Source: an uncultured Planctomycetia bacterium (GTDB lineage: Bacteria > Omnitrophota > Gorgyraeia > 2-02-FULL-51-18 > JAGOUK01). Taken from it: a stretch of 64,000 nt of DNA. The stretch is taken from the NCBI GenBank assembly GCA_964430735.1, contig CAYSFB010000002.1, forward strand, positions 7,390 through 71,389, read 5' to 3'. The notes under the pieces are model-generated. The model was not told where the DNA came from, did not search any database, and saw nothing but the letters and a program-made list of their open reading frames with translations. Made by a program: the position numbers and the translations under genes. Within the stretch, counting starts at the first letter, position 1, and every line of letters starts with the position of its first letter. Below are positions 3,044 through 43,290 of this stretch, one piece after another.

Positions 3044-4055
3044 TGAGCGCCGCGCCCTTGCGGATCTGGTCGCCCGACACGAAAAGACCGATGGTCTTTT
3101 TCGAGAACAGGTCCTGGCGGATGCGGCCGACGAGCACGTCGTCCTGATGCGCCGAATCCACCGGCATCGGGAAATAATTGGCGCCGACCTTGTCGACGAC
3201 CTTCACGCCCGGGGCCTTCGCGAGTACTTTGCGCGCCTGATCGGGCGTGATCGCCTTGTCGAACTTGGCGTAGATTGCCTCGGAATGCGCGCGCATCACC
3301 GGGACGCGGACGCAGGTCACCTGGACCTTGATGTCCTTGTCGCCGAGGATCTTGTGCGTTTCCTTGACCATCTTCATCTCTTCCTCGTTGTACCCTTCCG
3401 GGCCGACGCTGGAATTGTGGCTGAAGACGTTAAACGCGATCTGGTGCTTGAAGATCTTCTTCGTCGGCTTCTTGCCGGCGAGGATTTCGCCCGCCTGCAC
3501 GCGCAGCTCTTCCATCGCCTGCGCACCCGCGCCCGAAGCCGCCTGATACGTCGCGACGTTGAAGCGCTTGAGGCCCGCCGCCTTGTGCAAAGGATACAGC
3601 GCCATGAGAGCGACAATGGTCGAGCAGTTGGGATTGGCGATGATGCGCTTCTTGCCGCTGTTCTTGATTTCGGAGGCGTTGATCTCCGGGATCACGAGCG
3701 GAACTTCGGGGTCCATCCGGAACGCCGAGGTGTTGTCGATCATCACCGCGCCGGCCTTGAGCACCGCCGAGGCGAATTGCTTCGAAATGGAACCGCCCGC
3801 CGAGGCAAGGACGATGTCCACACCCTTGAACGAATCCTGCGTGAGCAGCTGCACCGTGTGGGTCTTGCCGCCAAAGCGGATCTTGCGGCCCGCCGAGCGC
3901 TCGGACGCGAGGAGCTTGATGCTGGCGATCGGGAACTTGCGCTCCTCGAGGATCTGCATCATCTCCACGCCGACGGCGCCGGTGGCGCCCATGATCGCGA
4001 CGTTGTACGCGGGCTTTTTCTTGAAGCGCAGGACTTCTGTCTCTGACTTCGCCAT
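3003..4055 (-). CDS. asd: Aspartate-semialdehyde dehydrogenase
   Basis: The C-terminal 350 aa of the 423-aa ORF match Asd (NVAIMGATGAVG..., NPNCSTI..., SGAG motif). The ATG at 4055 lies 1 nt upstream of the leuB stop. The N-terminal 73-aa extension in the track is low-complexity, out of homology, and rejected. Confidence 0.85.
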   Translation of the reverse strand: MAKSETEVLRFKKKPAYNVAIMGATGAVGVEMMQILEERKFPIASIKLLASERSAGRKIRFGGKTHTVQLLTQDSFKGVDIVLASAGGSISKQFASAVLKAGAVMIDNTSAFRMDPEVPLVIPEINASEIKNSGKKRIIANPNCSTIVALMALYPLHKAAGLKRFNVATYQAASGAGAQAMEELRVQAGEILAGKKPTKKIFKHQIAFNVFSHNSSVGPEGYNEEEMKMVKETHKILGDKDIKVQVTCVRVPVMRAHSEAIYAKFDKAITPDQARKVLAKAPGVKVVDKVGANYFPMPVDSAHQDDVLVGRIRQDLFSKKTIGLFVSGDQIRKGAALNAVQIAEKLIGKK

Positions 4056-4056
4056 T

Positions 4057-5127
4057 TTAGAGTCCTTTGACGACGAGGTCGCCGACTTCGCTGGTGGAAT
4101 AGCCCATCTTGCCGGCGCTCTGGCTCTTGAGCTGGGTGCAGACGTGCATGACGGATTTTTCGATCGCCTGGGCCGAGACGGTTTCGCCGACTTCTTCGAG
4201 CAGCATGCCGCCCGCCGCGATCGCGGCCAGCGGGTTGATGACGCCGAGACCCGTGTACTTGGGTGCGGAACCACCGATGGGTTCGAACATCGACACGCTC
4301 TCGGGGTGGATGTTGCCGCCCGCCGCGATGCCCATGCCGCCCTGGATCATGGCGCCCAGGTCGGTGATGATGTCACCGAACATGTTGTCGGTCACGATGA
4401 CGTCAAACCATTCGGGGTTCTTCACCATCCACATGCAGGTGGCGTCCACGTGCGCGTAGTCGGTGGTGACGTCCGGATATTCTTTGGCGACTTCCTGGAA
4501 CACGCGCCACCAGAGGTCATGCGCGTAGGTCAGAACGTTGGTCTTGGCGCAGAGCGTGAGCTTCTTACGCTTGTTGCGCTTGCGCGTAAATTCGAACGCG
4601 TAGCGGATGCAGCGCTCGACGCCCTTGCGGGTGTTGCGAGAGACCTGCAGCGCGACTTCCTGGGGCGTGCCCTTGTCGATGAACTGGCCTTCGCCGACGT
4701 AGAGGCCTTCGGTGTTTTCGCGGACGACGACGAAGTCGATGTCCTTGGGGCCCTTGTCCTTGAGCGGCGTATCGACGCCGGGATACAGGCGGACCGGGCG
4801 CAGGTTGATGTACTGGTCGAGGCCGAAGCGGGTCTTGAGCAGGATGCCGCGCTCGAGAATGCCGGGGGCGACGTCGGGGTGGCCGATCGCGCCGAGCAGG
4901 ATCGCGTCATACTTCTTCAGGTCCTGAACTTCCTGATCGGAAATGGTCTGCTTGGTCTTGAGATAGCGCTCGCCGCCGTAGTCGAGCATCGTGTAGTTGA
5001 GCTTGAATCCGTTTTTCTTGGCCGAGGCGTTCATCACCTTGATGGCTTCGCGCACGACTTCCGGGCCGGTGCCGTCGCCGCCGATGACGGCGATGTTGTA
5101 ATTGCGGGAGGTGTTCTTGGGTTTCAT
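4057..5127 (-). CDS. leuB: 3-isopropylmalate dehydrogenase family enzyme (LeuB-like; tartrate/isocitrate DH not excluded)
   Basis: 356 aa with signatures of the beta-decarboxylating dehydrogenase family (GGDGTGPEV, NLRPV, VRENTEGLYVG, NMFGDIITDL). Confidence 0.7.
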   Translation of the reverse strand: MKPKNTSRNYNIAVIGGDGTGPEVVREAIKVMNASAKKNGFKLNYTMLDYGGERYLKTKQTISDQEVQDLKKYDAILLGAIGHPDVAPGILERGILLKTRFGLDQYINLRPVRLYPGVDTPLKDKGPKDIDFVVVRENTEGLYVGEGQFIDKGTPQEVALQVSRNTRKGVERCIRYAFEFTRKRNKRKKLTLCAKTNVLTYAHDLWWRVFQEVAKEYPDVTTDYAHVDATCMWMVKNPEWFDVIVTDNMFGDIITDLGAMIQGGMGIAAGGNIHPESVSMFEPIGGSAPKYTGLGVINPLAAIAAGGMLLEEVGETVSAQAIEKSVMHVCTQLKSQSAGKMGYSTSEVGDLVVKGL

Positions 5128-5151: not shown

Positions 5152-5185
5152 GGGGACATGTTAGCGTCCTCGCTAACGTGTCCCC
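5152..5185. repeat. Imperfect palindrome GGGGACATGTTAGCG-tcct-CGCTAACGTGTCCCC (REP-like hairpin, possible thiG terminator / leuB leader structure)
   Basis: Two 15-nt arms with a 4-nt loop, read directly. It lies in the 71-nt spacer between the thiG stop (5199) and the leuB start (5127). A second copy of the same arm sequence is at 22374..22407. Confidence 0.6.
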
Positions 5186-6056: not shown

Positions 6057-6455
6057 TTAGCGGATAAAGCGGACCTTGATCTGGCCGCGGACGGACTCAA
6101 AGTCCCGGTCGGCGGTCAGGAGTTCTCCGCCGCTAAATTGGGCGAGCGCGGCGGCGAAGCCGTCGGCATAAGCTAGTTTTCCTGAGGATTTAAATTCAGC
6201 GGCAGACTCCGAAGATTCTTTGTCGGCGGGTACGATGTCGATGGGAAACGAGGCGGTTGCCTGCAGGATCAAGCGGGCTTTTTCAGCCCCCATGTCACGC
6301 TCCATGACATAAGACACCTCGCCCCAATTGACGGCGGATATCAGAAGCGTGTCATCTTCAGTATAAGCAAGATCCAAGGCCTTGACGACTTCACCGTATC
6401 CGGGTTCCCGGCGCAAATAGGCCAATAAGGCCGACGCGTCCAGGACCCGCTTCAT
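6057..6455 (-). CDS. vapC: PIN-domain toxin (VapC-like)
   Basis: 132 aa with the PIN-fold pattern (N-terminal D in VLDASALLAYL, conserved acidic residues, C-terminal LLTADRDF). It overlaps the upstream antitoxin gene by 4 nt. Confidence 0.7.
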   Translation of the reverse strand: MKRVLDASALLAYLRREPGYGEVVKALDLAYTEDDTLLISAVNWGEVSYVMERDMGAEKARLILQATASFPIDIVPADKESSESAAEFKSSGKLAYADGFAAALAQFSGGELLTADRDFESVRGQIKVRFIR

Positions 6456-6712
6456 ACTCCGAACCTTCTGAGCTTGGCATCTTCTCGGCGCTTCTCACGG
6501 GCTTTTTCCTCAAACAGAATCTTGGTCAAGCTGCCCTTGCCGGCCGCCATTCCCGCCATCCGCTCGAAGTAGCCGCGAGTCAGCGGCTGGATCACGATCT
6601 GCCCCCCTTGCTCAAAAACGTTGAGCCGTGTCCCTGCACCGATATTCAGATGCTTGCGGATCGCGGCCGGAATTACGATCTGGCCTTTACTGGTGATCAC
6701 GGTGGTTGTCAT
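6452..6712 (-). CDS. vapB: AbrB/MazE-type (swapped-hairpin) antitoxin, VapB-like
   Basis: 86 aa. The N-terminus (VITSKGQIVIPAAIRKHLNIGAGTRLNVFEQGGQIVIQPL) is a typical SpoVT/AbrB DNA-binding fold. It is 4-nt overlap-coupled to the PIN gene. Confidence 0.65.
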   Translation of the reverse strand: MTTTVITSKGQIVIPAAIRKHLNIGAGTRLNVFEQGGQIVIQPLTRGYFERMAGMAAGKGSLTKILFEEKAREKRREDAKLRRFGV

Positions 6713-25058: not shown

Positions 25059-26687
25059 TCACGAAAGTTCGAAGCGGGTGTATTTGCGATCGGCCGGCGG
25101 TACGTCCCAATCGATGAAGCGGTAACCGAGGCCGATGGGCGTCACGTCGACGTTTTGGAAGCGCTTATGCACCACCGGCAGCGCGTCGGCGACATAGATA
25201 AAGAGATAGGGCTTGTCCGCCGCGATCAACGCATGGATGCGGCGGCAGATCCGCGCACGCTCGTCCCGGTCAAAATTCCGCTGCGCCTCCAGGATGAGCC
25301 GGTCCACCTCGTCATTTTTGTAGCCAATGAAGTTGAATTCCCCCGGCCCCGTCTTGGACGAATGCCAGATGTCGTACGGGTCCGGGTCGCGCGAAAGCCC
25401 CCACGCCAACAGCACCATATCGAACTTCCGCGCGTCGACGACATTCTTCAGGAAGGAGCTCCACTCGATGATTTTGATCCGCATCTTCACACCCACGTCC
25501 GCGAACCGCCGCTGCAGGATCTCGGCGATCATCTGGCGCTGGACCACACCCTGGTTGGTGACGATCGTGAACTCGAACGGCTTGCCGTCCTTTTCGCGCA
25601 CACCGTCGCCGTCCGTGTCGCGCCAACCGGCCTCCTCGAGCAGCCGCCGGGCCTCCGCCGGATCAAACGGGCTCGGCTTCACGTCGGGATTATAAGCCCA
25701 CGAATCGGGGCTGAAAGGGCCCGTGACGGGCCTCCCGAGGCCCAGGAGGACCCCGTCGATGATCTCCTGCCGGTCGATGGCCATATCCAGCGCCTGCCGA
25801 ACCCGCGCGTCGGCAAACAACGGGCTCGCCAGGTTAAACGCCGCAAACGTATAACCGAAGCTCGGGTAGCGGTACTTGCCGTAGGTTTTTTTAAAAAAAT
25901 CCGAATCCGTCAGCCGCGCATACTGCAAAGGCGTCAAAGCCGTCGAGTCGATCGATTCCTGATGCAGCTCCAGAAACGTCGTCGCCGGATCGGGCACGAC
26001 CCGGATTACGATCCGGTCGATGCCCGGCCGGCCCTCGTGATAATCCGGGTTCGCGTACAATTCGACCCGGTCCCCCGATACCCAGCGTCCGAACCGGTAA
26101 GGGCCGGTCCCGACCGGCCGGCGCGCGAATTCGGTCTTCATCAGGTTTTCGTTCTCGAGCAGATGCTTGGGCACGATGGACATCCCCCAGCTCGAGAGCG
26201 CCGGGCTGTACGGCTCGTCGTAATGGACCCGGACGGTGAACGCGTCCGGCGTTTCGAGCTTCGAGACGCGCTTGAAGTCGCTGCCGTACGGCGTGGGAAG
26301 ATCGGGGTCGGTGAGCTTGGCGAAGGTAAACGCGACGTCGGCCGACGTGAACGGTCTGCCGTCATGCCAGCGCACGTCCTTGCGCAGATGAAAAACGAAG
26401 GTCCGGCCCCCGTCGAGGGTTTCCCAGGATTCGGCGAGGTCTCCCTCGAGCTCCAGCTGCGGATTGTAACGGACAAGGCCGTTGAAGATGCGTTCGGCCG
26501 CGTCGTGCGACGCCGAATCGGTCGCCAAAAACGGAATCAGGTTGGAAGGTTCGGCGCTGGACGCCGTGACGAAGGAATCCCCCGCGCACGCGGACGGGAC
26601 CGGCAGCGCAACCGCCGTCAGAAAAAGAAAAAACGCCGCGAACAGAATTCGCGGCGTTTTTTGAAGACCGGTTCGCTGCGTGCGCAA
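25059..26687 (-). CDS. oppA: ABC transporter substrate-binding protein, family 5 (OppA/DppA-like), secreted
   Basis: 542 aa. A signal peptide runs MRTQRTGLQKTPRILFAAFFLFLTAVALPVPSACAG. The family-5 SBP core is present (YRFGRWVSGDRVELYANPDYHEG..., NQGVVQRQMIAE). Confidence 0.8.
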   Translation of the reverse strand: MRTQRTGLQKTPRILFAAFFLFLTAVALPVPSACAGDSFVTASSAEPSNLIPFLATDSASHDAAERIFNGLVRYNPQLELEGDLAESWETLDGGRTFVFHLRKDVRWHDGRPFTSADVAFTFAKLTDPDLPTPYGSDFKRVSKLETPDAFTVRVHYDEPYSPALSSWGMSIVPKHLLENENLMKTEFARRPVGTGPYRFGRWVSGDRVELYANPDYHEGRPGIDRIVIRVVPDPATTFLELHQESIDSTALTPLQYARLTDSDFFKKTYGKYRYPSFGYTFAAFNLASPLFADARVRQALDMAIDRQEIIDGVLLGLGRPVTGPFSPDSWAYNPDVKPSPFDPAEARRLLEEAGWRDTDGDGVREKDGKPFEFTIVTNQGVVQRQMIAEILQRRFADVGVKMRIKIIEWSSFLKNVVDARKFDMVLLAWGLSRDPDPYDIWHSSKTGPGEFNFIGYKNDEVDRLILEAQRNFDRDERARICRRIHALIAADKPYLFIYVADALPVVHKRFQNVDVTPIGLGYRFIDWDVPPADRKYTRFELS

Positions 26688-29196: not shown

Positions 29197-29240
29197 CGAA
29201 AAAAAGCCCGGCCGCCCTTCTGAAGGGCGCGGCCGGGCTT
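29197..29240 (-). terminator. Rho-independent terminator/attenuator hairpin between gap and pgk
   Basis: A GC-rich inverted repeat (AAGCCCGGCCGCCCTTC tga AGGGCGCGGCCGGGCTT) is followed on the minus-strand transcript by a U7 run (plus-strand A7 at 29197..29203). It lies between the gap stop (29253) and the pgk start (29154). Confidence 0.7.
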
Positions 29241-30376: not shown

Positions 30377-33300
30377 CTAGGAAGCGGAGCGGCCCGTCGG
30401 CAGGGTCGACTTGACCCCTCCGGAGGCGTCTTGGAGCTGGATGGACCGGCCGTCCGAGGATAGGCCGATTGTGGAAACACCTTCAACCTCGATCGTCTCT
30501 TCAGCGGTACCGGTTTTGGTGTTGATCTTGGAGACCGTGCCGTCCAGGCGGTTGAAGACAAAGAGGAAGTTGCCGTCCGGAGTTAACACGATGCGGGAGG
30601 GTTGTGAACCCGTCTTAAAGGTATTGACGACATCCCCTGTCGTGGAGCTCACCGCCACAATGGAGTCGCTGATCCCGTCAGCGATGTAAATGACGCCGCT
30701 GGAGCCGTCCATCACCAGGTCGGTGGTGGAATCCGTGATGTGCGATTCGATGAGTTCCACGATAGCAGGATCGAGGCCGGCAAGCTGTGCGGTCACGTAA
30801 GGATCAGCTGCGGGTCCGGAATTTTCATTTCCCCCATCCAAAGAACCGCCCGAACCGGACGAGCCGCCGCCGAATCCGCCGGAATCGCCGGTAGTCTGGA
30901 TCGCGGCCTGCAGCTCGTTGGTGATCGTCTCTTCGGTCACGACCGTCGCCGCCGGCGCTTCAGCTCCAAAGTCCCATCCAAGGTTGTTACCTCCATCCAC
31001 GGCATTTGTCGCCACCGGCTCAAGACCGCCCGTTGCATCGGAATCGGTGATCTCGATCCAATCCACATCGAAGGTGCCGCTGGCAACCAAATCCCAGCGA
31101 GTACCGGGATTCGACGACAGAAGATTCACGCGGTCATCCGCATCGATGCCGTTGATGGTCAGGAGTCCCGTGACGGTGAACGTGGATCCGGCTTCGAACG
31201 TCAGGGATACGTCCGTGCTGTCATCTGCCGCGTCGATCTTGGTGAGATCATAGAACGTGGTGTCCCCCGCCAAGGACTGGTCTCCGCCGTCGAACACCAC
31301 GCTGCCTGCCTGGGCAGTGAAGGTTCCGTTATTCGTCCAGTCTCCGGCGATGTTGATCTGGTAGTTGGAACCCGAAACATCCAGCGTGGAACCTGCGTCG
31401 ATTGTGAGAGTCAAATCAACATCAAGATTGCTCGCCAGAGTCACAGTGCTGTTGTTGGAGATCTGGAGGTTGTAAAAAGTACCGCCGTTCAGGGCGCCGG
31501 AGCCGTCCAGGACCACAAGACCGTTCCGCGCCGTAAAAGTTCCAGCGTTGTTAAAATCACTGCCGACATTCACTTGATAGTCGGATCCCGAAACATCGAG
31601 CGTGGACCCGGCGTCGATCGTGAGGCTCATATCGACGTCCAAGGCGCTGTTCAAGGTCACGGTGCTGTTGTTGGACAGTTGGACATCATAAAACGACTGT
31701 CCGCCCGGAATGAGCGTAGTCGTGCCGTTGAACACCACAAGACTCGTCCCCGCCGTGAACGTGCCGCCCACTTCCCAAAGACCTCCGACCGTGACGGTAT
31801 TAGCTCCGGGCGAGAAGGTTCCGGCGGCAGCGATGAGCATATTAGTTGTCGTGACGTCTCCGCCGGGGGTAAAGGTGCCGCTCATAACCGCAAGGCCATT
31901 GCTCCCCGCCATCGTCAGATCTCCGCCTGAGACCCCGTAGATGGCGGAGATATCCCCGTCCCCATTCGCGTCGGCGGTGTTGAGCGTCGTGTTCGTAGCG
32001 GGGCCTGTCCCGTCCTGACGGATAAGCAGATAGTTCTGGTAGACGTCCAGTCCGGTGTAAGTAGCTGCATCGTTGATCTGGACCGTGACACCCTGCTCAG
32101 CTTCCCCATCGATGTAGATCGTGATGATGTCCCCGTCAACCAGAGCAGTGGAAAGAGTGATCGAGTATGCGCCCGATCCGTCCGTATCGTCCGTCCCGTC
32201 CGCAGCAGCTCCGTTGATCGAGATGGCAATAGTCTTGCCGGCCCCGATATTGGTCACACCGAAGTCAGTAAAGACCGTGCCGGTGATCGTGGGGCCGGAC
32301 ACGAAGTCCCAATTGGTGTTGTTGCCGCTGTCGACGCTGGTACCGTCGGTTGCATCGATCACCGTCGCATGAATGTTATTGGAATCAATGACGTCGACAT
32401 TCGAGATCGTCCTCGTGCCTTGAGGGTCAATCGACCATTGAGTGCCGCCTGAATCGCTCTGGAGGACAAGGTCGGCTACCCCGTCGCCTTGAAGGGTCAA
32501 AGCACCCAAGATCGTCTGAGTGCTGCCGTTGGCAAAGGTGATCGAACCTCCGGAGCCGGTCTTGGTGAGGTTATAGAAGGTGGTGCTGCCGTTGATGGTT
32601 TGATCGTCACCCTGAAAAGTCACGGTCCCTTGCTGGGCGGTAAATGTACCGTTGTTGGTCCAGCTCCCATCGATGAGGATCTGATGATCATCTCCCGAGA
32701 CGTCCAACTCCGATCCTGCGTCAATGGTGAGCAGGTGCGCAACTTCGATCCCGATCCCCAACACCACCGTCGTGTTGTTCGAGATTTGCAGGTCGTAAAA
32801 ACCGCCGCCGAGAATGATAATTGAGGAGCCTCCTCCGTCAAAGATCACTGCGCCCTGCTGAAAACTAAAAGTACCGCCGTTCGACCAATCCCCGCCGACA
32901 TTGATCTGCCAGTCGGCTCCCGAAACATCCAGCGTCGAACCGGAATCGATGGACAGATCATTGCCTACGACCAGCGCCCCGCCTAGCGTTACGGTGGTGT
33001 TATTTGATATCTGGAAGTCGGTGAAGTTGCCTCCCGTGACGGTGGACGTACTACCGCCGTCAAAAACCACCAGCCCTCCCTGCGCGACGAAGGTGCCGGC
33101 GTTGGCAAAGTCCGCGCCGATATTCACCTGATAATTGGAACCCGACACCCCGAGGGTGGATCCCGTATCGATCGTCAGACCACCATCCAGATCCAAAGCG
33201 CCCGTCAAAGTGATCGTGGTGTTGCTCGAAAGCTGAAGGTTGAAAAAGCTTCCTTCCAGTGTGATCGCCTGTCCGCCGTCGAAGACAACAAGACCACTCC

Positions 33301-36300
33301 GGGCGTTGAAAGTGCCGGCGTTCGCGAAATCCCCCGCCACATTGATCTGATAATCCGAGCCGGAGACATCCAACGTCGACCCGGCGTCAATGGTCAGATC
33401 GTTTTGGACGGTGATGGCGCTGCCCAGCGTCAAGACGGCATTATTCGAGACCTGGAGACTGTAGAAGTCGGCCGAAGTGGACGTCCCGGGGCCGTCATAG
33501 ACCACCAGACCGCTCCGGAAAGCAAAGGTTCCGGAATTTGTAAAATCACCGCTGATATTCATCTGATAGTTGGATCCCGAAACATCCAGGGTCGACCCGG
33601 AATCGATGGTCAGTGCGTGAGCGCTCATCGCCCCGCCCAAAGTCATCGTGCTGTTGCCGGAAATCTGGAGATCGTAGAACGAACCGCCCACAACGGTGGC
33701 TGAGCCGGTAAATATCGTCAAACCGGTCTGGCTCGAAAAGGTGCCGCTATTGGTCCAATCCCCGCTGACGCTGATCTGATAGCTCGAACCCGAAACATCC
33801 AGGGTCGATCCCGCGTCGATCGTGAGCGCATGCACCGATATTGCGGCCCCAAGCGTCACCGAGCTGTTATTGGAGATCTGAAGGTCGTAAATACTCAGAC
33901 CCGGGGCCGTTATCGTTTGACCTCCGTCAAACACCAGGAGGCCGCTGCGAGCCGTAAAGGTACCCGACTTGATAAAGTCTCTTCCGATATAGACCTGGTA
34001 ATTCGAACCCGACACATCCAGCGTGGAACCCGCGTCAATAGTCAGATCATTGTCCACATCAAGATTGCTGCCGAGGGTCATGGTGCTGTTGTTGGATATC
34101 TGGAGGTTGTAGAAGGTGCCTCCGGTGATGCCCTCTGAGACGTTGAAGACGACCAGGCCGTTCCGGGGATTAAAAGTGCCGTTGTTGGTAAAACCGCTCG
34201 AGAGGTCCAATTGAAAGTTCGACGCCGACACGTCCAGCGTGGAACCGGCGTCGATATTGATCCCGTGAAGCGTGATGGCAGCCCCCAGGGTCAGGGTCGT
34301 GCTATTGGTCAAATAAAGGTCGTAGACGTTGAAGTCCAGAGATGTGGACTGTCCTCCGTCAAAGTACAGAACTCCCGCCTGCGCATTAAAGGTACCGGCC
34401 TTCGAGAAGCCCCCTCCGACATTGATCTGATAATTGGATCCCGAAACATCCAGCGTCGATCCGGCGTCGATCGTGAGGTCATTATCCACGTCAAAATTGC
34501 TTCCAAGCGTTGCAGTGCTGTTGTTGGAGACCTGGAAATTGTAAAAAGTTCCTCCCGACACTGAGCCGCTTCCGTCCAGCACCACAGAACCGTTCCGCGG
34601 ATTAAAAGTACCGGCATTAATCCAACTGGCCCCGACATTGATCTGATGGTTCGACCCGGAGACGTCCAGTGTGGAACCCGCGTCGATCGTGAGATCATTG
34701 TTGACGTCAAGCGCGCCCCCCAACGTCACCGTGCTGTTGTTGGAAATCTGAAGGGCATAAAAATTACCGCCAGTCACCGTACCGGCTCCGTCCAGAACGA
34801 CCAACCCCGCGTTCGGAATAAAAGTACCGTTATTGATCCAATCAACCCCCACGTTGATCTGATAACTGGCGCCCGAAAGGTCCAGCAATGAGCCGGCGTC
34901 GATCGTCAGCGAACCATCGATGTCCAATGCAGCCGACGGGTTGATCGTGGTGTTGTTGGACAGCTGCAAGTCATAAAAGTTCCCCTGAAGCGCGGTGGTT
35001 TGACCGCCGTCAAAGACGACTGTTGCAATATTGGGAGTAAATGTGCCGGCGTTCGACCAATCCCCTCCAATAGTGATATTAGAACCCCCCGCATTCAAAG
35101 TCGCCCCCGCATCGATCGTGATATCGTTGTCGGCGTCCAAGACACTACCCAAAGTCACCGTGCCGCCACTCGCGATCTGAAAATCATAAAAAGTGCCTCC
35201 GGTGACGGTACTGGTCCCGTCGATCACGACCAGACCGCCCCGCGGGATAAAGGAACCGGAATTGGCGAAGTCTCCGGCAACGTTCAGCTGATAATTGGAT
35301 CCTGAGACATCCAGGGTCGATCCCGCGCCGATGTTGAGAGCGCCGTTCACATCCAAAGGCGCATCCAGCGTGATCGTGGTGTTATTGCTGAGCTCCAGAA
35401 GGTAGAAGTTGCCGTTCAACGCGGTGGACTGGCCGCCGTCAAAGACCACGGCCCCGGTTTGATACGTGAAGGTCCCGCTATTGGACCAGTCGCCTCCAAC
35501 AGCAATGTCATAATTCGACCCCGAAACGTCCAAGGTCGCTGTTCCACCGATCGTGAGATCGTTATCCACGTCCAAGTTGCTGCCCAGGGTCGCCGTGCAG
35601 CCGGCCGAGATCTGAAGGTCATAAAAATTCCCTCCGGCAATGGTGCCCGTGCCGTCAAAGACCACAATTCCCGACCGAGGCACAAAGGTGCCGGAATTGT
35701 CCCAGCCGGTCGCGACGTTGATCTGAAAATTAGACCCGCTCTTGACGTCCACCGTCGCTCCGGCGGCAATGGTGATCGTTCCGTCGGCGTTCAGGGCGCT
35801 CTGGAACTCATACGTCGGACTGCCGCCGCCGTTTTCGAAGCTGATATTTCCATAGGTCGACGCGCCAAAGTTGAGTGTCTTGGTCCCCGAAACGGCGTTG
35901 AAGTGAAGCGTCGGACTCAGATCCGTGTTCAACGTTCCGCCGGAGGCGTCCCAATTCCCGGTGATATACATCGACCATCCGGCGGCGTTCGTGTCGAGAG
36001 TGCCTGTGAGCGTTAAATCGTTGTCCACGTGGAAATCGGCGTCGAGCGTGTAAGACCCCGACACGACAAGGTTATAAAATCCGTTCGCGCCTCCGGAAAA
36101 GCTCCCGGTTCCGGACAACGTGACCGTGCTCGAGTTGGCCGTAAACGTCCCGGCGTTGGTCCAATCCCCCGCCACGTCGACCGAATAATTGCTTCCCGAA
36201 GTGTCCAGCGTAGAACCCGCGTCGATGACGAGGTCGCCGTCCAGATCCAGATTTGCCCCCAACGTCATGGTGGTGTTCCCGGAAAGCCGGAGACTGTAAA

Positions 36301-39300
36301 AAGTGATGCCCGTCGGCAAGGTAAGGGTCTGCCCCCCGTCAAACACGACCAGTCCGTTCTGGGCAGATAAGGTTCCCGAATTCGCCCAAGTTCCACCGAC
36401 ATTGACCTGGTAATGCGAACCCGACACCTCCAGCGTGGAACCCGCGTCAATGGTCAGATCATTGTCCACATCAAGATTGCTGCCGAGGGTCATGGTGCTG
36501 TTGTTGGATATCTGGAGGTTGTAGAAGGTGCCTCCGGTGATGCCCTCTGAGACGTTGAAGACGACCAGGCCGTTCCGGGGATTAAAAGTGCCGTTGTTGG
36601 TAAAACCGCTCGAGAGGTCCAATTGAAAGTTCGACGCCGACACGTCCAGCGTGGAACCGGCGTCGATATTGATCCCGTGAAGCGTGATGGCAGCCCCCAG
36701 GGTCAGGGTCGTGCTATTGGTCAAATAAAGGTCGTAGACGTTGAAGTCCAGAGATGTGGACTGTCCTCCGTCAAAGTACACAACTCCCGCCTGCGCATTA
36801 AACGTACCGGAATTCGAGAAGTCCCCCCCGACATTGATCTGATAATTCGATCCCGAGACGTCCAGCGTCGATCCGGAGTCGATCGTGAGGTCATTGCTGA
36901 CGGTGATGGCGCTACCCAGCGTCAAGGTGGAATTGTTCGAGACCTGGAGGTTGTAGAAGTTGGCTGAAGTGGCCGTCCCGGTGCCATCATAGACCACCAG
37001 GCCGCTTCGGAATGTGAAGGTTCCGGAATTTATAAAGTCGCCGTTGATGTTCATCTGATAGTGGGATGCCGAAACATCCAGGGTCGACCCGGAATCGATG
37101 GTGAGGGTATGAGCCGACATTCCGCTGTTCAACGTCATCGTGGCATTGTTCGAGATCTGCATATCATAAAAAGCACCGCCGGTGATGGCGCCATTGGCAT
37201 CAAAGACGACCAGTCCGGCTTGACACATAAAAGTACCCAGACCATTCCAATCCCCGCCGACATTAACCTGATAATTGGACACCGAAACATCCAGCGTCGA
37301 ACCTGAATCGATCGTAAGGTCACCGTCAACATCAAAAGCGCTGTCCAGCGTGGCCGTGGTGTTATTGGATAATTGGAAATGGTAAAAGTAGTTGCCGCTC
37401 ATTGCGATCGATCCTCCGCCGTCGAAGACGACGAGTCCGTTTCGCTTGGTGAAGGCGCCGGACATGATCCAGGAGCCTCCAACATTAATCTGATAGTTGG
37501 ATCCCGAAACATCCAAAGTGCCGGCGGCAATGTTCATCCCGGCAATATCCAAAGCGGAGCCCAGTGTCCAGGTATTACCGGCAGCATTGACCTCAAAGTC
37601 ATTAAATGCACTTGAGCTGGTGATGGTTCCGCCAGTACCCTGGAAGCTGACGGCGCCGGTTCCGGCGGTAAAGGTTCCTCCGGTCTGATTCCAGCTGCTC
37701 CCCCCCACTATGATATTAAAGGTCGACGCATTCAGCGTCCCGTTCGCGATGGACATATTGCCCACCGTGATACCAACCCCCAGCGTGATCGTTCCCGTAT
37801 ATCCCGAAGCGATTGTGAAGTTGCCTCCCGACCACGTCCCCACGTTGTCGATCGTGATGTTGCCGGTGTACGTTCCATTAAAGAGGACTGCGTCTTGGTT
37901 ATCCGGAAGCGTGTCTCCGTCCCAGTTATTCGCATCCGACCAATTGGTTCCATCCCCACCCCCGTCAAAGGTCGGGTCGAAGAGGACGTTGGAGTTGTTG
38001 CTGCCGTTCACACCATGTTCAATAAAGAGGTAGTGGATGAGGTTCATATCCCGGGCATTGATTCGGTTCAAGTTAAGGCGTGATGCATAGGCGGAAGGGT
38101 CGCCAAAGTCCAGGAAGTATTGGGTGCCGGGGTTAGAAGACCTGAACTTGATGTGCTGTTCCCCGCCCTGGGCCTGGGGAAGGTCGGGGGCGCCGAGGAT
38201 GGTGACGTTATTAAGGAAGGTGTAGGTCTGACCTGCTTCCCAGGTCACTTCAAGGTCAGGAACGGTCAACGTGAAGTTGTAAAACGACCGGGAACCGTCG
38301 ATTGTTATGTTGGACTGAATATCCACTGAGTCATAAGACCCGGGGACAAAGCCGCCTGACCAGTTCAGGGGATCGGAATAGAGCGTGGAGGATGAGCCGT
38401 CAAATACGAGGGCTTGGAACAAGAGACCGGAGTTGTTCTGGAGATTCATCGAGTGGAGAAGTTCCAAGCTCGGCGGACCGTTGGAATCGAAGTACACCGT
38501 GTCTTGGACTGCCGTATAGATAAAGTTGTGATTTGAGACTTGTCCAATCATCCAGGGAACGCCCGCCTGGGTGGACCTTACGCTCAAGAGATGGCCATAG
38601 GAACCTTGAAGCGAGAGGGTTCCAGTGAAGCTCTGGCTAGCGCCTGATTCGAACTCGACCGTCTTCTCAGGGGCTATCACATAGAAGTCATGGAAGGCAT
38701 TGGATCCGAGGATATGGGAATCTTCCGATCCTTCAAGCTCGACTCTTGAGTCGCCTGACAGGAAGCTTCCCCCATTCACCCAGTCTCTTTGAAGAGTAAA
38801 AAGAACTGAATAGTCAGGGTTAGCGATAGGGTCTTGGGTGGCGGGGGCCTGAAGGGTTGCACCCTGACCTATGATGAGGGAGTCGACTGTGATGTTTGAA
38901 CCCTCGACTACCCTATATAAGGCACCCTGGCCGCTTAAGGTCAGGTTGCCGGTCACGTTCATGCTCTTGAGATCTGAAGTTTGAGTGGTATGAAGCGTGA
39001 TGTTGCCTTCGACATTAAGGTTGTCGGTGACCTGGACGGAGTTGGCTTCAACGGTCACTTCATCCGCCTTAAGGGTTCCTTCCAGCCGGGCTTCATCCGC
39101 AACGATCTCGATCACGCCGTCACGCTCAACCACATGCGTCGCTTCGATGACCCCGGTGTTGTTTACGACCCCTTCAAAGATGTTGTCCAGAGCTTTGGCG
39201 GTAAGGACCACTTTGTTGGAACGAATGGTTCCGTCGTTCTTGACGTTGGGGTTGGATGAGTACTGTTGAACGAGAGCTTGATCGATCGATACGCTCACCA

Positions 39301-39916
39301 ACCCTTCGCTGTCAAAAGAGAGGGTTGCTTTTTCGCAAGCGGCGATCTCGACGGTTCCGAGTTGGGCTTCGATCAAACCGGTGTTTAAGATTTCTTGGGA
39401 AAGAAGGACCACGTTCTTGGCGGAGATGTGTCCGGCATTGTGGATGAAGGAGGCGCCGGATTCGTTTTCGAACACGAATTGATTGGATGCAAAAAGGGCG
39501 TTTGAGATGTCCAAAGTTGAGACTGCCAAAGACCCGGCTGAGATATTGGCGTTCTGTCCGATATTAAAACCATTTGCATTCACCAAAAAGATCTGACCAT
39601 TCGCGTTCAGAGTTCCGAAGATCTCGGAGACTGAGCCGCCGGTGACGCGGGACAGAAGGGTGGATGCTTCGGAAGCTTGGATGAAGTTGACGGTCTGGTT
39701 TTCTGCAATCGAGAAGGAGTCGAAGTTGATGATGGCGCCGTCTGAGGCGGTGATGGTTAAAAGATCCGGAGTTGAGTCATCAACTGTTACCGAACCATTC
39801 TCGACCGTCCAGCCGGATGGAAGTGCGTAAGCTGAAGCAGAACCCAATAAGCATAGCCCTCCCAGGAGTCCCAGGAGAGAGATGCGGCCTATGAGGGTGT
39901 TCTGCAAGCGTTTCAT
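30377..39916 (-). CDS. Two-partner-secretion exoprotein (TpsA; filamentous-haemagglutinin-like beta-helix adhesin, 3,179 aa)
   Basis: A signal peptide (MKRLQNTLIGRISLLGLLGGLCLLGSASAYA) is followed by a TPS/haemagglutination-activity-like domain (NFIQASEASTLLSRVTGGSVSEIFGTLNANGQIFLVNANGFNIG). Then come about 30 tandem ~70-aa beta-helix repeats of the type GSTLDVSGSNYQINVGGDWSNSGTF...FYDLQISNNST. A TpsB gene is adjacent. Confidence 0.8.
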   Translation of the reverse strand: MKRLQNTLIGRISLLGLLGGLCLLGSASAYALPSGWTVENGSVTVDDSTPDLLTITASDGAIINFDSFSIAENQTVNFIQASEASTLLSRVTGGSVSEIFGTLNANGQIFLVNANGFNIGQNANISAGSLAVSTLDISNALFASNQFVFENESGASFIHNAGHISAKNVVLLSQEILNTGLIEAQLGTVEIAACEKATLSFDSEGLVSVSIDQALVQQYSSNPNVKNDGTIRSNKVVLTAKALDNIFEGVVNNTGVIEATHVVERDGVIEIVADEARLEGTLKADEVTVEANSVQVTDNLNVEGNITLHTTQTSDLKSMNVTGNLTLSGQGALYRVVEGSNITVDSLIIGQGATLQAPATQDPIANPDYSVLFTLQRDWVNGGSFLSGDSRVELEGSEDSHILGSNAFHDFYVIAPEKTVEFESGASQSFTGTLSLQGSYGHLLSVRSTQAGVPWMIGQVSNHNFIYTAVQDTVYFDSNGPPSLELLHSMNLQNNSGLLFQALVFDGSSSTLYSDPLNWSGGFVPGSYDSVDIQSNITIDGSRSFYNFTLTVPDLEVTWEAGQTYTFLNNVTILGAPDLPQAQGGEQHIKFRSSNPGTQYFLDFGDPSAYASRLNLNRINARDMNLIHYLFIEHGVNGSNNSNVLFDPTFDGGGDGTNWSDANNWDGDTLPDNQDAVLFNGTYTGNITIDNVGTWSGGNFTIASGYTGTITLGVGITVGNMSIANGTLNASTFNIIVGGSSWNQTGGTFTAGTGAVSFQGTGGTITSSSAFNDFEVNAAGNTWTLGSALDIAGMNIAAGTLDVSGSNYQINVGGSWIMSGAFTKRNGLVVFDGGGSIAMSGNYFYHFQLSNNTTATLDSAFDVDGDLTIDSGSTLDVSVSNYQVNVGGDWNGLGTFMCQAGLVVFDANGAITGGAFYDMQISNNATMTLNSGMSAHTLTIDSGSTLDVSASHYQMNINGDFINSGTFTFRSGLVVYDGTGTATSANFYNLQVSNNSTLTLGSAITVSNDLTIDSGSTLDVSGSNYQINVGGDFSNSGTFNAQAGVVYFDGGQSTSLDFNVYDLYLTNSTTLTLGAAITLHGINIDAGSTLDVSASNFQLDLSSGFTNNGTFNPRNGLVVFNVSEGITGGTFYNLQISNNSTMTLGSNLDVDNDLTIDAGSTLEVSGSHYQVNVGGTWANSGTLSAQNGLVVFDGGQTLTLPTGITFYSLRLSGNTTMTLGANLDLDGDLVIDAGSTLDTSGSNYSVDVAGDWTNAGTFTANSSTVTLSGTGSFSGGANGFYNLVVSGSYTLDADFHVDNDLTLTGTLDTNAAGWSMYITGNWDASGGTLNTDLSPTLHFNAVSGTKTLNFGASTYGNISFENGGGSPTYEFQSALNADGTITIAAGATVDVKSGSNFQINVATGWDNSGTFVPRSGIVVFDGTGTIAGGNFYDLQISAGCTATLGSNLDVDNDLTIGGTATLDVSGSNYDIAVGGDWSNSGTFTYQTGAVVFDGGQSTALNGNFYLLELSNNTTITLDAPLDVNGALNIGAGSTLDVSGSNYQLNVAGDFANSGSFIPRGGLVVIDGTSTVTGGTFYDFQIASGGTVTLGSVLDADNDITIDAGATLNAGGSNITIGGDWSNAGTFTPNIATVVFDGGQTTALQGNFYDLQLSNNTTINPSAALDIDGSLTIDAGSLLDLSGASYQINVGVDWINNGTFIPNAGLVVLDGAGTVTGGNFYALQISNNSTVTLGGALDVNNDLTIDAGSTLDVSGSNHQINVGASWINAGTFNPRNGSVVLDGSGSVSGGTFYNFQVSNNSTATLGSNFDVDNDLTIDAGSTLDVSGSNYQINVGGGFSKAGTFNAQAGVLYFDGGQSTSLDFNVYDLYLTNSTTLTLGAAITLHGINIDAGSTLDVSASNFQLDLSSGFTNNGTFNPRNGLVVFNVSEGITGGTFYNLQISNNSTMTLGSNLDVDNDLTIDAGSTLDVSGSNYQVYIGRDFIKSGTFTARSGLLVFDGGQTITAPGLSIYDLQISNNSSVTLGAAISVHALTIDAGSTLDVSGSSYQISVSGDWTNSGTFSSQTGLTIFTGSATVVGGSFYDLQISGNSTMTLGGAMSAHALTIDSGSTLDVSGSNYQMNISGDFTNSGTFAFRSGLVVYDGPGTSTSADFYSLQVSNNAVLTLGSAITVQNDLTIDAGSTLDVSGSDYQINVAGDFANAGTFNARSGLVVFDGGQAITLEGSFFNLQLSSNTTITLTGALDLDGGLTIDTGSTLGVSGSNYQVNIGADFANAGTFVAQGGLVVFDGGSTSTVTGGNFTDFQISNNTTVTLGGALVVGNDLSIDSGSTLDVSGADWQINVGGDWSNGGTFSFQQGAVIFDGGGSSIIILGGGFYDLQISNNTTVVLGIGIEVAHLLTIDAGSELDVSGDDHQILIDGSWTNNGTFTAQQGTVTFQGDDQTINGSTTFYNLTKTGSGGSITFANGSTQTILGALTLQGDGVADLVLQSDSGGTQWSIDPQGTRTISNVDVIDSNNIHATVIDATDGTSVDSGNNTNWDFVSGPTITGTVFTDFGVTNIGAGKTIAISINGAAADGTDDTDGSGAYSITLSTALVDGDIITIYIDGEAEQGVTVQINDAATYTGLDVYQNYLLIRQDGTGPATNTTLNTADANGDGDISAIYGVSGGDLTMAGSNGLAVMSGTFTPGGDVTTTNMLIAAAGTFSPGANTVTVGGLWEVGGTFTAGTSLVVFNGTTTLIPGGQSFYDVQLSNNSTVTLNSALDVDMSLTIDAGSTLDVSGSDYQVNVGSDFNNAGTFTARNGLVVLDGSGALNGGTFYNLQISNNSTVTLASNLDVDLTLTIDAGSTLDVSGSNYQINIAGDWTNNGTFTAQAGSVVFDGGDQSLAGDTTFYDLTKIDAADDSTDVSLTFEAGSTFTVTGLLTINGIDADDRVNLLSSNPGTRWDLVASGTFDVDWIEITDSDATGGLEPVATNAVDGGNNLGWDFGAEAPAATVVTEETITNELQAAIQTTGDSGGFGGGSSGSGGSLDGGNENSGPAADPYVTAQLAGLDPAIVELIESHITDSTTDLVMDGSSGVIYIADGISDSIVAVSSTTGDVVNTFKTGSQPSRIVLTPDGNFLFVFNRLDGTVSKINTKTGTAEETIEVEGVSTIGLSSDGRSIQLQDASGGVKSTLPTGRSAS
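39000..39830 (-). other. Domain: TPS (haemagglutination activity) secretion domain of TpsA
   Basis: The N-terminal ~280 aa after the signal peptide carry the NxxNG(F/I) and LLSRVTGG-type motifs of TpsA secretion domains. Confidence 0.6.
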
Positions 39917-41465: not shown

Positions 41466-43235
41466 GTGCCAAAATGCTTCATGCACTCAAACCGCAGGTT
41501 CGCTATTGCAGCCTTTTTAACGGCTTTTCATGTCCTATTGCTCACCCGGGGTACGGATTCCGTCGCCTTAGCCGCAGATAACGACCCTTCCCTCGCAGAC
41601 GCCGTTCAACAACAGACCAGCCAGGCCGAAGAATTCCGCCGTCAAACGGAGGCCCGCGAAGCTGAACCTCCCGCCCAAAGCCCTTTAGCGCCGGCTGAAG
41701 CCGAGTCGGAAAAGGCAACGGGGCCCGACGCCGGTCCCCGCTTCCAGGTCAGCAAGATCCTTTTTGAGGGAAATACGGTCTTCCCTTCTTCCGACTTCGA
41801 CCCTTACGTCAAGATACATGAAGGTGAGACGGTCAGTCTCGAGGACCTCAAACTCGCCGCCAAGGCGGTCACACTCCATTACCGCGCCCGCGGATACCTG
41901 ACCAGCCGCGCTTACATCAAACCCCAGAAGATCGTGAACGGCGTCGTCACGATCCAGGTGCTCGAAGGCCGGTTGGACAAAACGGTCGTTGAAGGCAACC
42001 GGTATTTTTCGACCAAATTTTTTGAAGAAGCGGCGGCCATGCCCAAGGACAAGCCGTTCCGGTACTCGGAACTCGAGCGCCGCCTGCGCTTCGTGAACCG
42101 GAACCCCGACTTCCATATCGCCGCGGTCCTCGCCCCCGGTCAGACGCCGGAGACGTCCGACCTGCACCTCAAGATCGACGACGGCCTGCCGATGCACGCG
42201 TATTACGAGTTCAACAACCGCGGCTCCAAACTCACCCACCGGTCGCGTCACATGGTCACCGGCGTTCACAATAATTTCCTCGGCAAGGCGGATTCCCTGT
42301 CGGTCACCGGCTCTATCGCCGAAGAAGATGCGTTCCGCGCGCTGTCGGCGTCGTGGTCGCTGCCGATGTGGCAGACCGGCACAACCTTCATGATGTCGGG
42401 CAGCTACGTCGACAGCAGGCTCGTCAAACACCTCAAACCCCTGGACATCGAGGGCCTTTACACCAGCGTCACGCCGGCCATCTCGCAGGAACTCGTCATC
42501 ACGCAGAAGGACCAGCTGTCCTGGTACGCCGGCCTTGAGATCAAGGATTCCAAGTCCACGATCAGCGACACCAAGACCAGTCTCGACCGGATGCGCGTCC
42601 TGGTCACCGGCCCGCGCTGGACGCATCTGGGCGGCGGCGGACGGACCAGCCTTTCGGGCGATGTGCATTGGGGTATTCCGGGTCTCCTGGGCGGATCTGA
42701 AGCGGAGGATCTCAACGCTTCGCGGAACGGTTCGGGCGGGGATTTTATTTATTACACCGGTTCCGCTTCTCGGATCCAGCGCCTGCCGCTGGGACTCACA
42801 GGCGTGCTGCGCGGCGAAGGCCAATGGACCGACGACACCCTGACGGCGGTCGAACTGATGCGTCTCGGGGGTTACTCCGGTGTGCGCGGCTATCCGGAAT
42901 CAGACTCGCAAGGCGACTACGGGTTCATGGGAACGATGGAGCTGGTCGCCCCGACCCCCCTGCCCGACAGCATCAAGTTCCCTTTTACGAAGGACCCCTT
43001 CAGCAAGTCGGTTGATTGGCTCGTGTTCTTTGACGGGGGAAAAGTTTTTGCCCAGGAACGCGGCGCCCGGACCGACGTCAAGGATCGGATGTTATTGGGC
43101 ATCGGCGGCGGTCTTCGCGTTCACTTGAAGCAGAATATTTCCGCCCAGCTCGATTACGGCTGGCCCGTCGGCGACGACTCCACCGATACGGACAACCAAC
43201 CCCAAGCCCACTTCTCGATCCGAGTCGGTCTCTAA
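41466..43235 (+). CDS. Two-partner-secretion outer-membrane transporter TpsB (ShlB/FhaC/HecB family)
   Basis: A POTRA region (PRFQVSKILFEGNTVFPSSDF..., VTLHYRARGYLTSRAYIKPQKIVNGVVTIQVLEGRLDKTVVEGNRYF) is followed by a C-terminal beta-barrel. The ORF track begins at GTG 41466. An in-frame ATG at 41481 gives a clean signal peptide (MHSNRRFAIAAFLTAFHVLLLTRGTDSVALA). Confidence 0.8.
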   Translation: MPKCFMHSNRRFAIAAFLTAFHVLLLTRGTDSVALAADNDPSLADAVQQQTSQAEEFRRQTEAREAEPPAQSPLAPAEAESEKATGPDAGPRFQVSKILFEGNTVFPSSDFDPYVKIHEGETVSLEDLKLAAKAVTLHYRARGYLTSRAYIKPQKIVNGVVTIQVLEGRLDKTVVEGNRYFSTKFFEEAAAMPKDKPFRYSELERRLRFVNRNPDFHIAAVLAPGQTPETSDLHLKIDDGLPMHAYYEFNNRGSKLTHRSRHMVTGVHNNFLGKADSLSVTGSIAEEDAFRALSASWSLPMWQTGTTFMMSGSYVDSRLVKHLKPLDIEGLYTSVTPAISQELVITQKDQLSWYAGLEIKDSKSTISDTKTSLDRMRVLVTGPRWTHLGGGGRTSLSGDVHWGIPGLLGGSEAEDLNASRNGSGGDFIYYTGSASRIQRLPLGLTGVLRGEGQWTDDTLTAVELMRLGGYSGVRGYPESDSQGDYGFMGTMELVAPTPLPDSIKFPFTKDPFSKSVDWLVFFDGGKVFAQERGARTDVKDRMLLGIGGGLRVHLKQNISAQLDYGWPVGDDSTDTDNQPQAHFSIRVGL

Positions 43236-43237
43236 TT

Positions 43238-43290
43238 AAATAGGGACACGTACTATTTAATTTGAAATAAATAGTACGTGTCCCTATTTA
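43238..43290. terminator. Palindrome AAATAGGGACACGTACTATTTA-(8 nt)-TAAATAGTACGTGTCCCTATTTA between convergent tpsB and fmt (bidirectional terminator / REP-like)
   Basis: Near-perfect ~22-nt arms in a 69-nt AT-rich spacer between the tpsB stop (43233..43235) and the fmt stop (43305..43307). Confidence 0.65.

Follow-up and report, generated by a model that had tools for sequence, protein, structure and literature searches.

What are the four hairpins with a common GGGACAC stem base that recur in this stretch of DNA, and how did they come to lie where genes end? We use 'the window' for the whole stretch of 64,000 nucleotides that was analyzed. The four inverted pairs that the original prediction had located in it are all present, and they fall into two subfamilies. 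In subfamily 1, site 1 (5152–5185) reads GGGGACATGTTAGCG-tcct-CGCTAACGTGTCCCC, with 15-bp arms and a 4-nt loop; on its sense strand, the minus strand, it is GGGGACACGTTAGCG-AGGA-CGCTAACATGTCCCC. Site 2 (22374–22407), GGGGACATGTTGACG-ctca-CGCCAACGTGTCCCC, shares this layout, and 13 of the 15 arm positions are identical in the two sites. Subfamily 2 comprises site 3 (25002–25048), TAGGGACACACAC..GTGTGTGTCCCTA, in which a TAGGGACAC core has AT-rich flanks, and site 4 (43238–43290), AAATAGGGACACGTACTATTTA..TAAATAGTACGTGTCCCTATTT, the arms of which span about 23–26 bp (26 nt and 96% complementary in the inverted-repeat listing). The stems of sites 3 and 4 are longer and AT-richer than those of sites 1 and 2 and are headed by (A/T)TAGGGACAC. 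The four copies measure 34, 34, 47 and 53 bp, with arms of 13–26 bp and folding energies of −24 to −35 kcal/mol (−33.9 and −34.8 kcal/mol for the two strands of site 4).

Could such a set arise by chance? The pattern GGGACA-N6-36-TGTCCC occurs four times in the window, about once per 16 kb, versus 0.13 ± 0.37 times in shuffled sequence, and none of 100 shuffles contained four or more. The heptamer GGGACAC alone is not enriched in the window (10 observed, 8.35 expected), so the signal resides in the inverted pairing. The two bases preceding the heptamer are GG or NG in sites 1 and 2 and TA in sites 3 and 4. A longer sequence, GGGACA(C/T)G, had been claimed for all four copies; that claim fails at site 3, which reads GGGACACA, leaving GGGACAC alone as common to all. 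This stem base would be the conserved recognition part of the family. The window copies are singlets, without REPIN or BIME doublets, and neither target-site duplications nor flanking direct repeats were found at any of the four. A gathering-score search of the window and eight loci matched no family of Rfam 15, three Rfam E-value searches with short stretches returned generic hairpin and miRNA matches only, and a literature search with 9–12-mers of the element gave primers and unrelated matches only.

The positions of the hairpins with respect to genes are strikingly uniform. Gene calls and family scans place all four at gene ends, no more than 14 nt from a stop codon; three are intergenic, 2–14 nt past stop codons, and the fourth straddles a stop and a start. 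Site 1 lies 13 nt past the stop of a ThiG-like gene and 24 nt ahead of the leuB ATG. The upstream gene had been named thiG; a Pfam ThiG match is on record and the NCBIfam matches are weak, and 'ThiG-like' is as far as the name holds. Site 2 sits at the junction of an oppD-like and an oppF-like cistron. The oppD TGA (22392–22390) is in its loop, its left arm encodes, on the sense strand, the last OppD residues SGDTLA, and its right arm contains a candidate oppF ATG (22381–22379), a second candidate ATG being at 22366–22364; the copy does overlap the oppD stop and the oppF start and lies partly in coding sequence, as had been predicted. Site 3 lies between the gene for a substrate-binding protein (stop 25061–25059, 10 nt away) and the first of the permease genes. 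Its loop contains the ATG of this permease (25027–25025) and its right arm an in-frame GTG (25012–25010); together, these two segments encode the N-terminus that the permease has in the window, MKIISVCP... Site 4 separates the convergent Omp85-like (plus-strand) and fmt (minus-strand) genes, 2–14 nt from their stops.

Are the same junctions occupied by hairpins in related genomes? The window is from a Candidatus Omnitrophota bacterium: its LeuB and GAPDH belong to clusters at 90% identity in which the named members are so labelled. To the window we compared the syntenic relatives L127/L128 (LeuB 96.9% identical), L129 and L130/L131, together with the more distant L120 and L123 (OppD 69–70% identical). 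Five related Omnitrophota contigs, which together provide about 90 kb of syntenic DNA, contain no GGGACA..TGTCCC pair, and all three orthologous junctions (ThiG-like–leuB, oppD–oppF and binding protein–permease) are free of hairpins. At the first, both flanks align in L127 and L129 and the hairpin region is replaced. At the second, L120, L123, L128 and L130 have an overlapping or 19-nt junction, to which the window adds some 45 extra bases that are made of the hairpin. At the third, the relatives have a gap of 2 or 29 nt, and their permease begins MFKFIAKRLL. At site 4 the neighboring Omp85-like gene itself (41466–43235, plus strand) is absent from L128 and L130. Such presence and absence between related genomes is a sign of mobility in REP/RAYT systems. 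The comparison shows that the hairpins are recent, lineage-specific insertions, located either 2–14 nt past a stop codon or directly upon one. The one at oppD–oppF provides a new OppD stop codon, and the one between binding protein and permease a new start region for the permease.

Other differences between the window and its relatives concern whole genes. A pair encoding an AbrB/MazE-type antitoxin and a PIN/VapC toxin (6057–6712), between a gene of 4896 aa and the ThiG-like gene, is missing at the same place in L127 and L129. The window contains three giant ORFs, of 4896, 3179 and 3866 aa. The 3179-aa gene (30377–39916, minus strand) is absent from L128 and L130, in which fmt, a CBS-domain gene and the GAPDH gene are directly adjacent.

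Where else, then, do these cores occur? A scan of one genome per species (596 Gb) for GGGGACAYGTT-N4-20-AACRTGTCCCC gave at least 116 loci; by rough arithmetic, about 2–5 would be expected by chance. Among the loci listed, at least 36 belong to one Caulobacteraceae MAG, at least 13 to one Planctomycetota MAG and at least 8 to one Hydrogenedentes MAG; others come from several Caulobacter species and low-GC Omnitrophota, and from single Acidobacteriota, SAR324 and Riflebacteria MAGs. At the listed loci they are accompanied by at least 60 more GGGACA..TGTCCC hairpins whose inner stems differ, and some genomes have copies inserted into ORFs. A scan of metagenomes for TAGGGACACRY..RYGTGTCCCTA yielded at least 120 loci of TAGGGACAC..GTGTCCCTA hairpins, nearly all of them true hairpins. 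The consensus of the matches listed is A-tract-TAGGGACACATCCCATTT-loop-AAATGGGATGTGTCCCTA-T-tract, and site 4 has this same architecture (A-tract-TAGGGACAC..GTGTCCCTA-T-tract). Among the matches listed, both tracts are present in 73 of 124 metagenome copies, and 4 of the 111 classified copies are inside ORFs. Unpaired cores show no enrichment in 577 kb of the metagenome loci (35 against 46 expected). With the exact inner stem of the window type, the metagenome scan gave no match; nor did the subfamily-1 pattern in 2.9 million viral contigs, from which we take the element not to be phage-borne. One contig, L193, carries copies headed by CGGGGACAC and others headed by TAGGGACAC on a common inner stem, which makes the two subfamilies variants of one family. 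Judged by these matches, the same cores form dispersed multi-copy families in many phyla.

Several of these loci have peculiarities of their own. In the Caulobacteraceae MAG SMAG_U6002 (L004, L009, L016, L018, L023, L026 and others) the hairpins form fixed inverted doublets 14–25 nt apart, hairpin A being GGGGACATGATCC..GGTTCGTGTCCCC and hairpin B ctggaGGGGACACGTTCC..GGAACATGTCCCC, the latter with a conserved CTGGA on one side only; by analogy, the doublets resemble a REPIN/BIME arrangement. In L009, from this MAG, a doublet adjoins a ZMP/ZTP riboswitch (4167–4250, minus strand; 66.5 bits). In L057, from the SAR324 MAG, three identical tandem copies of aaaattgGGGGACATGTTCTTTTTTGTAACGTGTCCCCtaatttt (6143–6331) stand 91 and 67 nt apart between two response-regulator genes. 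In Hydrogenedentes UBA2224, NN or longer runs of N fall exactly in the hairpin loops (L012 5396–5424 and L073 4402–4434; also L030, L032, L043, L068, L099 and L113), which suggests either population heterogeneity, such as inversion of the loop between the arms, or assembler ambiguity at palindromes.

A different situation is met in low-GC (43%) Omnitrophota MAGs. There a GGGGACATGTTC..GAACGTGTCCCC hairpin lies inside one paralogous family of 500–2400-aa proteins (for example L014 2097–2130 and 2616–2649; also L002, L020, L022, L025, L055, L080, L089, L090, L111 and others), always in the linker between the motifs DYLxxxKNQ and IxREIVIPxLEKE. No Pfam family matches the N-terminal domain of these proteins, and their C-terminal parts are diverse (methyltransferase, NmrA). 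The hairpin is read as PTRGHV..NVSPSTLPSE, as QPGDMF..TCPQAGCQP or as a mixture of the two; since the frame differs between copies, conservation is at the nucleotide and not the protein level. An orientation bias with respect to transcription, 34 of 34 in the low-GC Omnitrophota, was set aside, as it stems from one homologous gene family and not from independent insertions. With the core confined there to one paralogous family, not every occurrence of the core can be counted as a recent transposition.

What kind of enzyme might move such elements? In L200, an ORF of 254 aa (3725–4489) matches Pfam Y1_Tnp at 37 bits (cut-off 23), has HUH and tyrosine motifs and has GTAGGGACACACAC..GTGTGTGTCCCTAC hairpins on both sides; NCBI labels the protein as from Caulobacter sp. 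A very different Y1_Tnp gene in L170 (695–1285, 28.7 bits) is followed, 21 nt past its stop, by a TAGGGACAC hairpin, and homologues of its product bear the JGI name 'REP element-mobilizing transposase RayT'. In L059 a long CCGGGGACAC-headed hairpin, CCGGGGACACTATATAG..CTATATAGTGTCCCCGG, with a GGGGACAC core, lies 55–160 nt upstream of a RAYT gene whose product is a homologue of the L200 protein. A Planctomycetota homologue of RAYT, in L252, has a GGGGACATGAACC..GGTTCGTGTCCCC hairpin 2.2 kb off. For the proteins of L200, L170, L059 and L252 the best NCBIfam match is the REP-associated tyrosine transposase, at 48–71 bits, below the 80-bit equivalog cut-off. A cyanobacterial relative, L253, has GTAGGGGCGGGTTT repeats on either side, which indicates that stem bases of the GTAGGG type persist in this enzyme family and that the remainder is variable. 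On this evidence, genes of RAYT type adjoin such hairpins, or are flanked by them, in other genomes. The window itself contains no Y1 transposase ORF by hmmsearch; beside the clustered copies in L107, L057 and L038 there are ordinary genes only and no transposases; and the one ORF at the listed genome loci that has hairpins on both sides is not a transposase.

We conclude, with a probability of about three in four, that the four hairpins are non-autonomous copies of a REP-type repeat family, dispersed by a Y1 (HUH) tyrosine transposase of the RAYT/TIRYT type that works on the hairpin folded as a single strand. The suggestion that they are REP-like had been part of the original prediction, and it gains support from their absence from the relatives' junctions and the roughly 90 kb around them, from their dispersal elsewhere and from the RAYT genes beside them in L200, L170 and L059.

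If a transposase recognizes these hairpins, how would it tell one strand from the other? Position 8 of the stem is a C.A mismatch on one strand and a G.T pair on the other. This asymmetry, which the original prediction had noted for the first subfamily, is conserved in 151 of 170 hairpins outside the window, from at least eight lineages, among the matches listed. The accompanying claim, that the plus strand forms a perfect stem with one G-U wobble, is correct for the copy at 5152 and fails for that at 22374. In the latter a second position, 13, is also asymmetric (A.C on plus, G.U on minus); it favors the opposite strand, with the result that both strands fold about equally (−25.8 kcal/mol for plus, −26.9 kcal/mol for minus). 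The substrates of the E. coli enzyme TnpA-REP are REPs folded as single strands; it requires their conserved stem mismatches for activity and processes one strand only (Corneloup et al., PMC8266576). The position-8 asymmetry is consistent with strand-specific recognition of this kind, of a folded single strand.

A sequence of events can be proposed for the REP-type reading. This genome would have, or would once have had, a cognate RAYT. The enzyme would cleave and join beside the hairpin, on the strand on which position 8 is a G.T pair, and would in this way seed new copies just downstream of genes. Once inserted and transcribed, the hairpins may act as RNA elements.

Might they instead be RNA elements from the outset? 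The four could be independent intrinsic terminators or intercistronic mRNA hairpins, the common base being due to a host RNA-binding factor or to convergence. Their uniform closeness to stop codons speaks for this explanation, and the A- and T-tracts in the majority of the metagenome copies listed are in keeping with it. So is site 4, which has an A-rich lead and a T-rich tail on the plus strand and was flagged terminator-like on that strand by the terminator scan, and so is site 3, where UUUAUUU directly follows the hairpin on the sense strand (this copy failed the loop rule of the scanner). Sites 1 and 2, on the other hand, lack a sense-strand U-tract, site 1 being terminator-like on the antisense strand only, and the window uses unrelated conventional terminators at 26628–26662 and 29203–29237. 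Nor would independent terminators be expected to be wholly absent from the related genomes compared, to flank or adjoin RAYT genes, or to conserve a stem mismatch that weakens the RNA stem of the sense strand. We regard this explanation as unlikely. The phrase 'not just a terminator', applied earlier to the family, does not stand as worded; 'also a terminator' suits it better, in view of the full bidirectional anatomy of site 4 and the U-rich sense tail of site 3.

One of the conventional terminators is itself oddly placed. The perfect 15-bp hairpin at 26628–26662, AAAAAACGCCGCGAA..TTCGCGGCGTTTTTT, has A6 and T6 flanks and is terminator-like on both strands; it lies within the first 20 codons of the substrate-binding-protein ORF, as listed here and in public assemblies. 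The true start of that protein may be further downstream than listed.

What roles might be played by the inserted REP-type hairpins once they are transcribed? In E. coli and Salmonella, the REPs at malE–malF and hisJ–hisQ have RNA-level effects within operons, and site 3, between binding-protein and permease genes, mirrors their position. It could serve as a partial terminator or a 3′-exonuclease barrier, attenuating read-through and protecting the upstream binding-protein message, and would thereby raise the output of binding protein over that of permease. Site 4 would be a bidirectional terminator for both convergent transcripts. Site 2, with the oppD stop in its loop, sequesters the first of the candidate oppF starts, so that translation of oppF would depend on oppD ribosomes; it may be a coupling hairpin, hiding the downstream oppF start until ribosomes finishing oppD melt the stem. 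Site 1, having no U-tract on the sense strand, would most likely be an RNA stability element only, an intercistronic stabilizer. REPs no more than about 15 nt from a stop codon can reportedly also cause ribosomes to stall and thereby reduce translation of the gene ahead of them, and all four window copies are that close to a stop.

A second way to account for dispersed palindromes is as MITEs, derived from a DDE-type insertion sequence with terminal repeats starting GGGGACA. The hairpins do resemble terminal inverted repeats, are dispersed and in some genomes stand inside ORFs. Their size, however, extends down to 26–34 bp with 4-nt loops, far under that of MITEs (typically >80 bp), the window copies lack target-site duplications, and beside the copies examined we found no DDE transposase, Y1/HUH enzymes being the only transposases adjacent to any. 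We consider a MITE origin very improbable. Least credible, with a probability close to negligible, is that the hairpins are operator sites of a regulon, bound by a dimeric regulator, or DNA-uptake sequences that occur in pairs: the core is palindromic and conserved, and the uptake sequences of Neisseria and Pasteurellaceae, which often form terminator hairpins, count in favor, but all four copies are at gene 3′ ends or within operons and not at promoters, the flanking genes are functionally unrelated, and the lack of enrichment of the unpaired core, in the window and in the metagenome loci alike, rules out the distribution of an uptake sequence.

Other structured or palindromic elements were considered and rejected: integron attC sites, since no cassette array is present and the GTT/AAC boxes lie elsewhere than at the outer ends; CRISPR, as the spacing is irregular; a tRNA-like minihelix, as a T-loop is lacking; group II intron domain 5, as there is neither an AGC triad nor a bulge; and parS, matS and alphaproteobacterial SOS boxes, the sequences of which differ.

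What follows if the four hairpins are indeed REP-type repeats? Repeats of the REP/RAYT type would be extended to Candidatus Omnitrophota, and the window would offer a clear case of an element reshaping operon junctions, in the form of the oppD stop codon and the N-terminal codons of the permease. For annotation, the family would explain odd gene ends and starts and flag likely intra-operon attenuators. One REP core with one conserved mismatch across very distant phyla bears, moreover, on the question of horizontal movement. RAYT groups occur across numerous classes of bacteria and may have been transferred horizontally on long time scales (Bertels et al., PMC5581495). A bolder proposal, which we hold to be doubtful, is that a single REP/RAYT lineage is spreading horizontally through at least eight phyla with its GGGACAC core and position-8 wobble intact, and that in Omnitrophota it has perhaps also been co-opted, rebuilding cistron junctions with stop and start codons; within the paralogous protein family, nucleotide-level conservation in all three frames would then hint at an RNA-level function that a host factor recognizes. 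If true, such horizontal spread would contradict the prevailing view of REPIN–RAYT systems as vertically inherited and lineage-specific.

How do the hairpins compare with repeats already described? By Di Nocera, De Gregorio and Rocco (2013, BMC Genomics 14:522; PMC3733652), REPs are divided into GTAG-tagged and CGTC-tagged super-families and are described as lying mainly downstream of coding regions and sometimes inside genes. According to that paper, RAYT-like genes in species without GTAG REPs are flanked by inverted repeats sharing GGGGWSAS, some of which form moderately abundant families, often as dimers. The elements described here fit that motif: one arm of sites 1 and 2, GGGGACAC, matches it in full, and the other arm of these sites (GGGGACAT), as well as sites 3 and 4 (AGGGACAC), match at 7 of 8 positions. 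Like the TIRYT/RAYT-like GGGGWSAS repeats (PMC3733652), they flank or adjoin Y1 transposase genes (L059, L200 and L170), make up dispersed families of moderate abundance in which dimers sometimes occur (compare the doublets of the Caulobacteraceae MAG), and are present in Acidobacteria and Planctomycetes, among others. Unlike them, the window copies are not long inverted repeats around a gene; they are compact hairpins of 34–53 bp with the motif in each arm. The portions of the paper available to us make no mention of the host phylum, Omnitrophota, or of the position-8 mismatch.

With the GTAG REPs (the y and z REPs and BIMEs of E. coli, the REPINs of Pseudomonas and the SMAG repeats of Stenotrophomonas) the elements have much in common: both are palindromes, short and imperfect, that tend to stand outside genes and close behind their ends; copies flank a RAYT gene, and those of L200, GTAGGGACAC..GTGTCCCTAC, carry the GTAG tag; an irregularity of the stem marks strand identity; a single genome can carry several variants; and effects at the RNA level are expected within operons. 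They differ in that sites 3 and 4 have ATAG or TTAG before GGACAC, three of the four bases of the tag, and sites 1 and 2 have NGGG and are untagged; the GTAG-tagged form is found among related copies elsewhere (L200, L158, L163, L169 and L186). Unlike REPINs and BIMEs the window copies are singlets, and unlike usual REPs site 2 extends into two coding sequences, in one of which it provides the stop codon; such overlap is unusual, though reported. Classical REP families are usually lineage-specific, whereas the GGGACAC core is common to many phyla.

The palindromic elements of Rickettsia (RPEs) offer a third comparison. Like them, the hairpins are tolerated inside reading frames, as at site 2, in copies of the Planctomycetota MAG and in the protein family of the low-GC Omnitrophota. 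RPEs are 100–150 bp long, CGTC-tagged and without a known transposase (PMC3733652); the elements here are 30–50 bp, have a GGGACAC core and are linked to RAYT genes. The class to which they belong, REP/TIR-type repeats tied to RAYT-like tyrosine transposases, is already known, and no new mechanism is revealed. What is somewhat unusual is the conservation of core and wobble across phyla, together with cistron junctions remodelled by the element itself.
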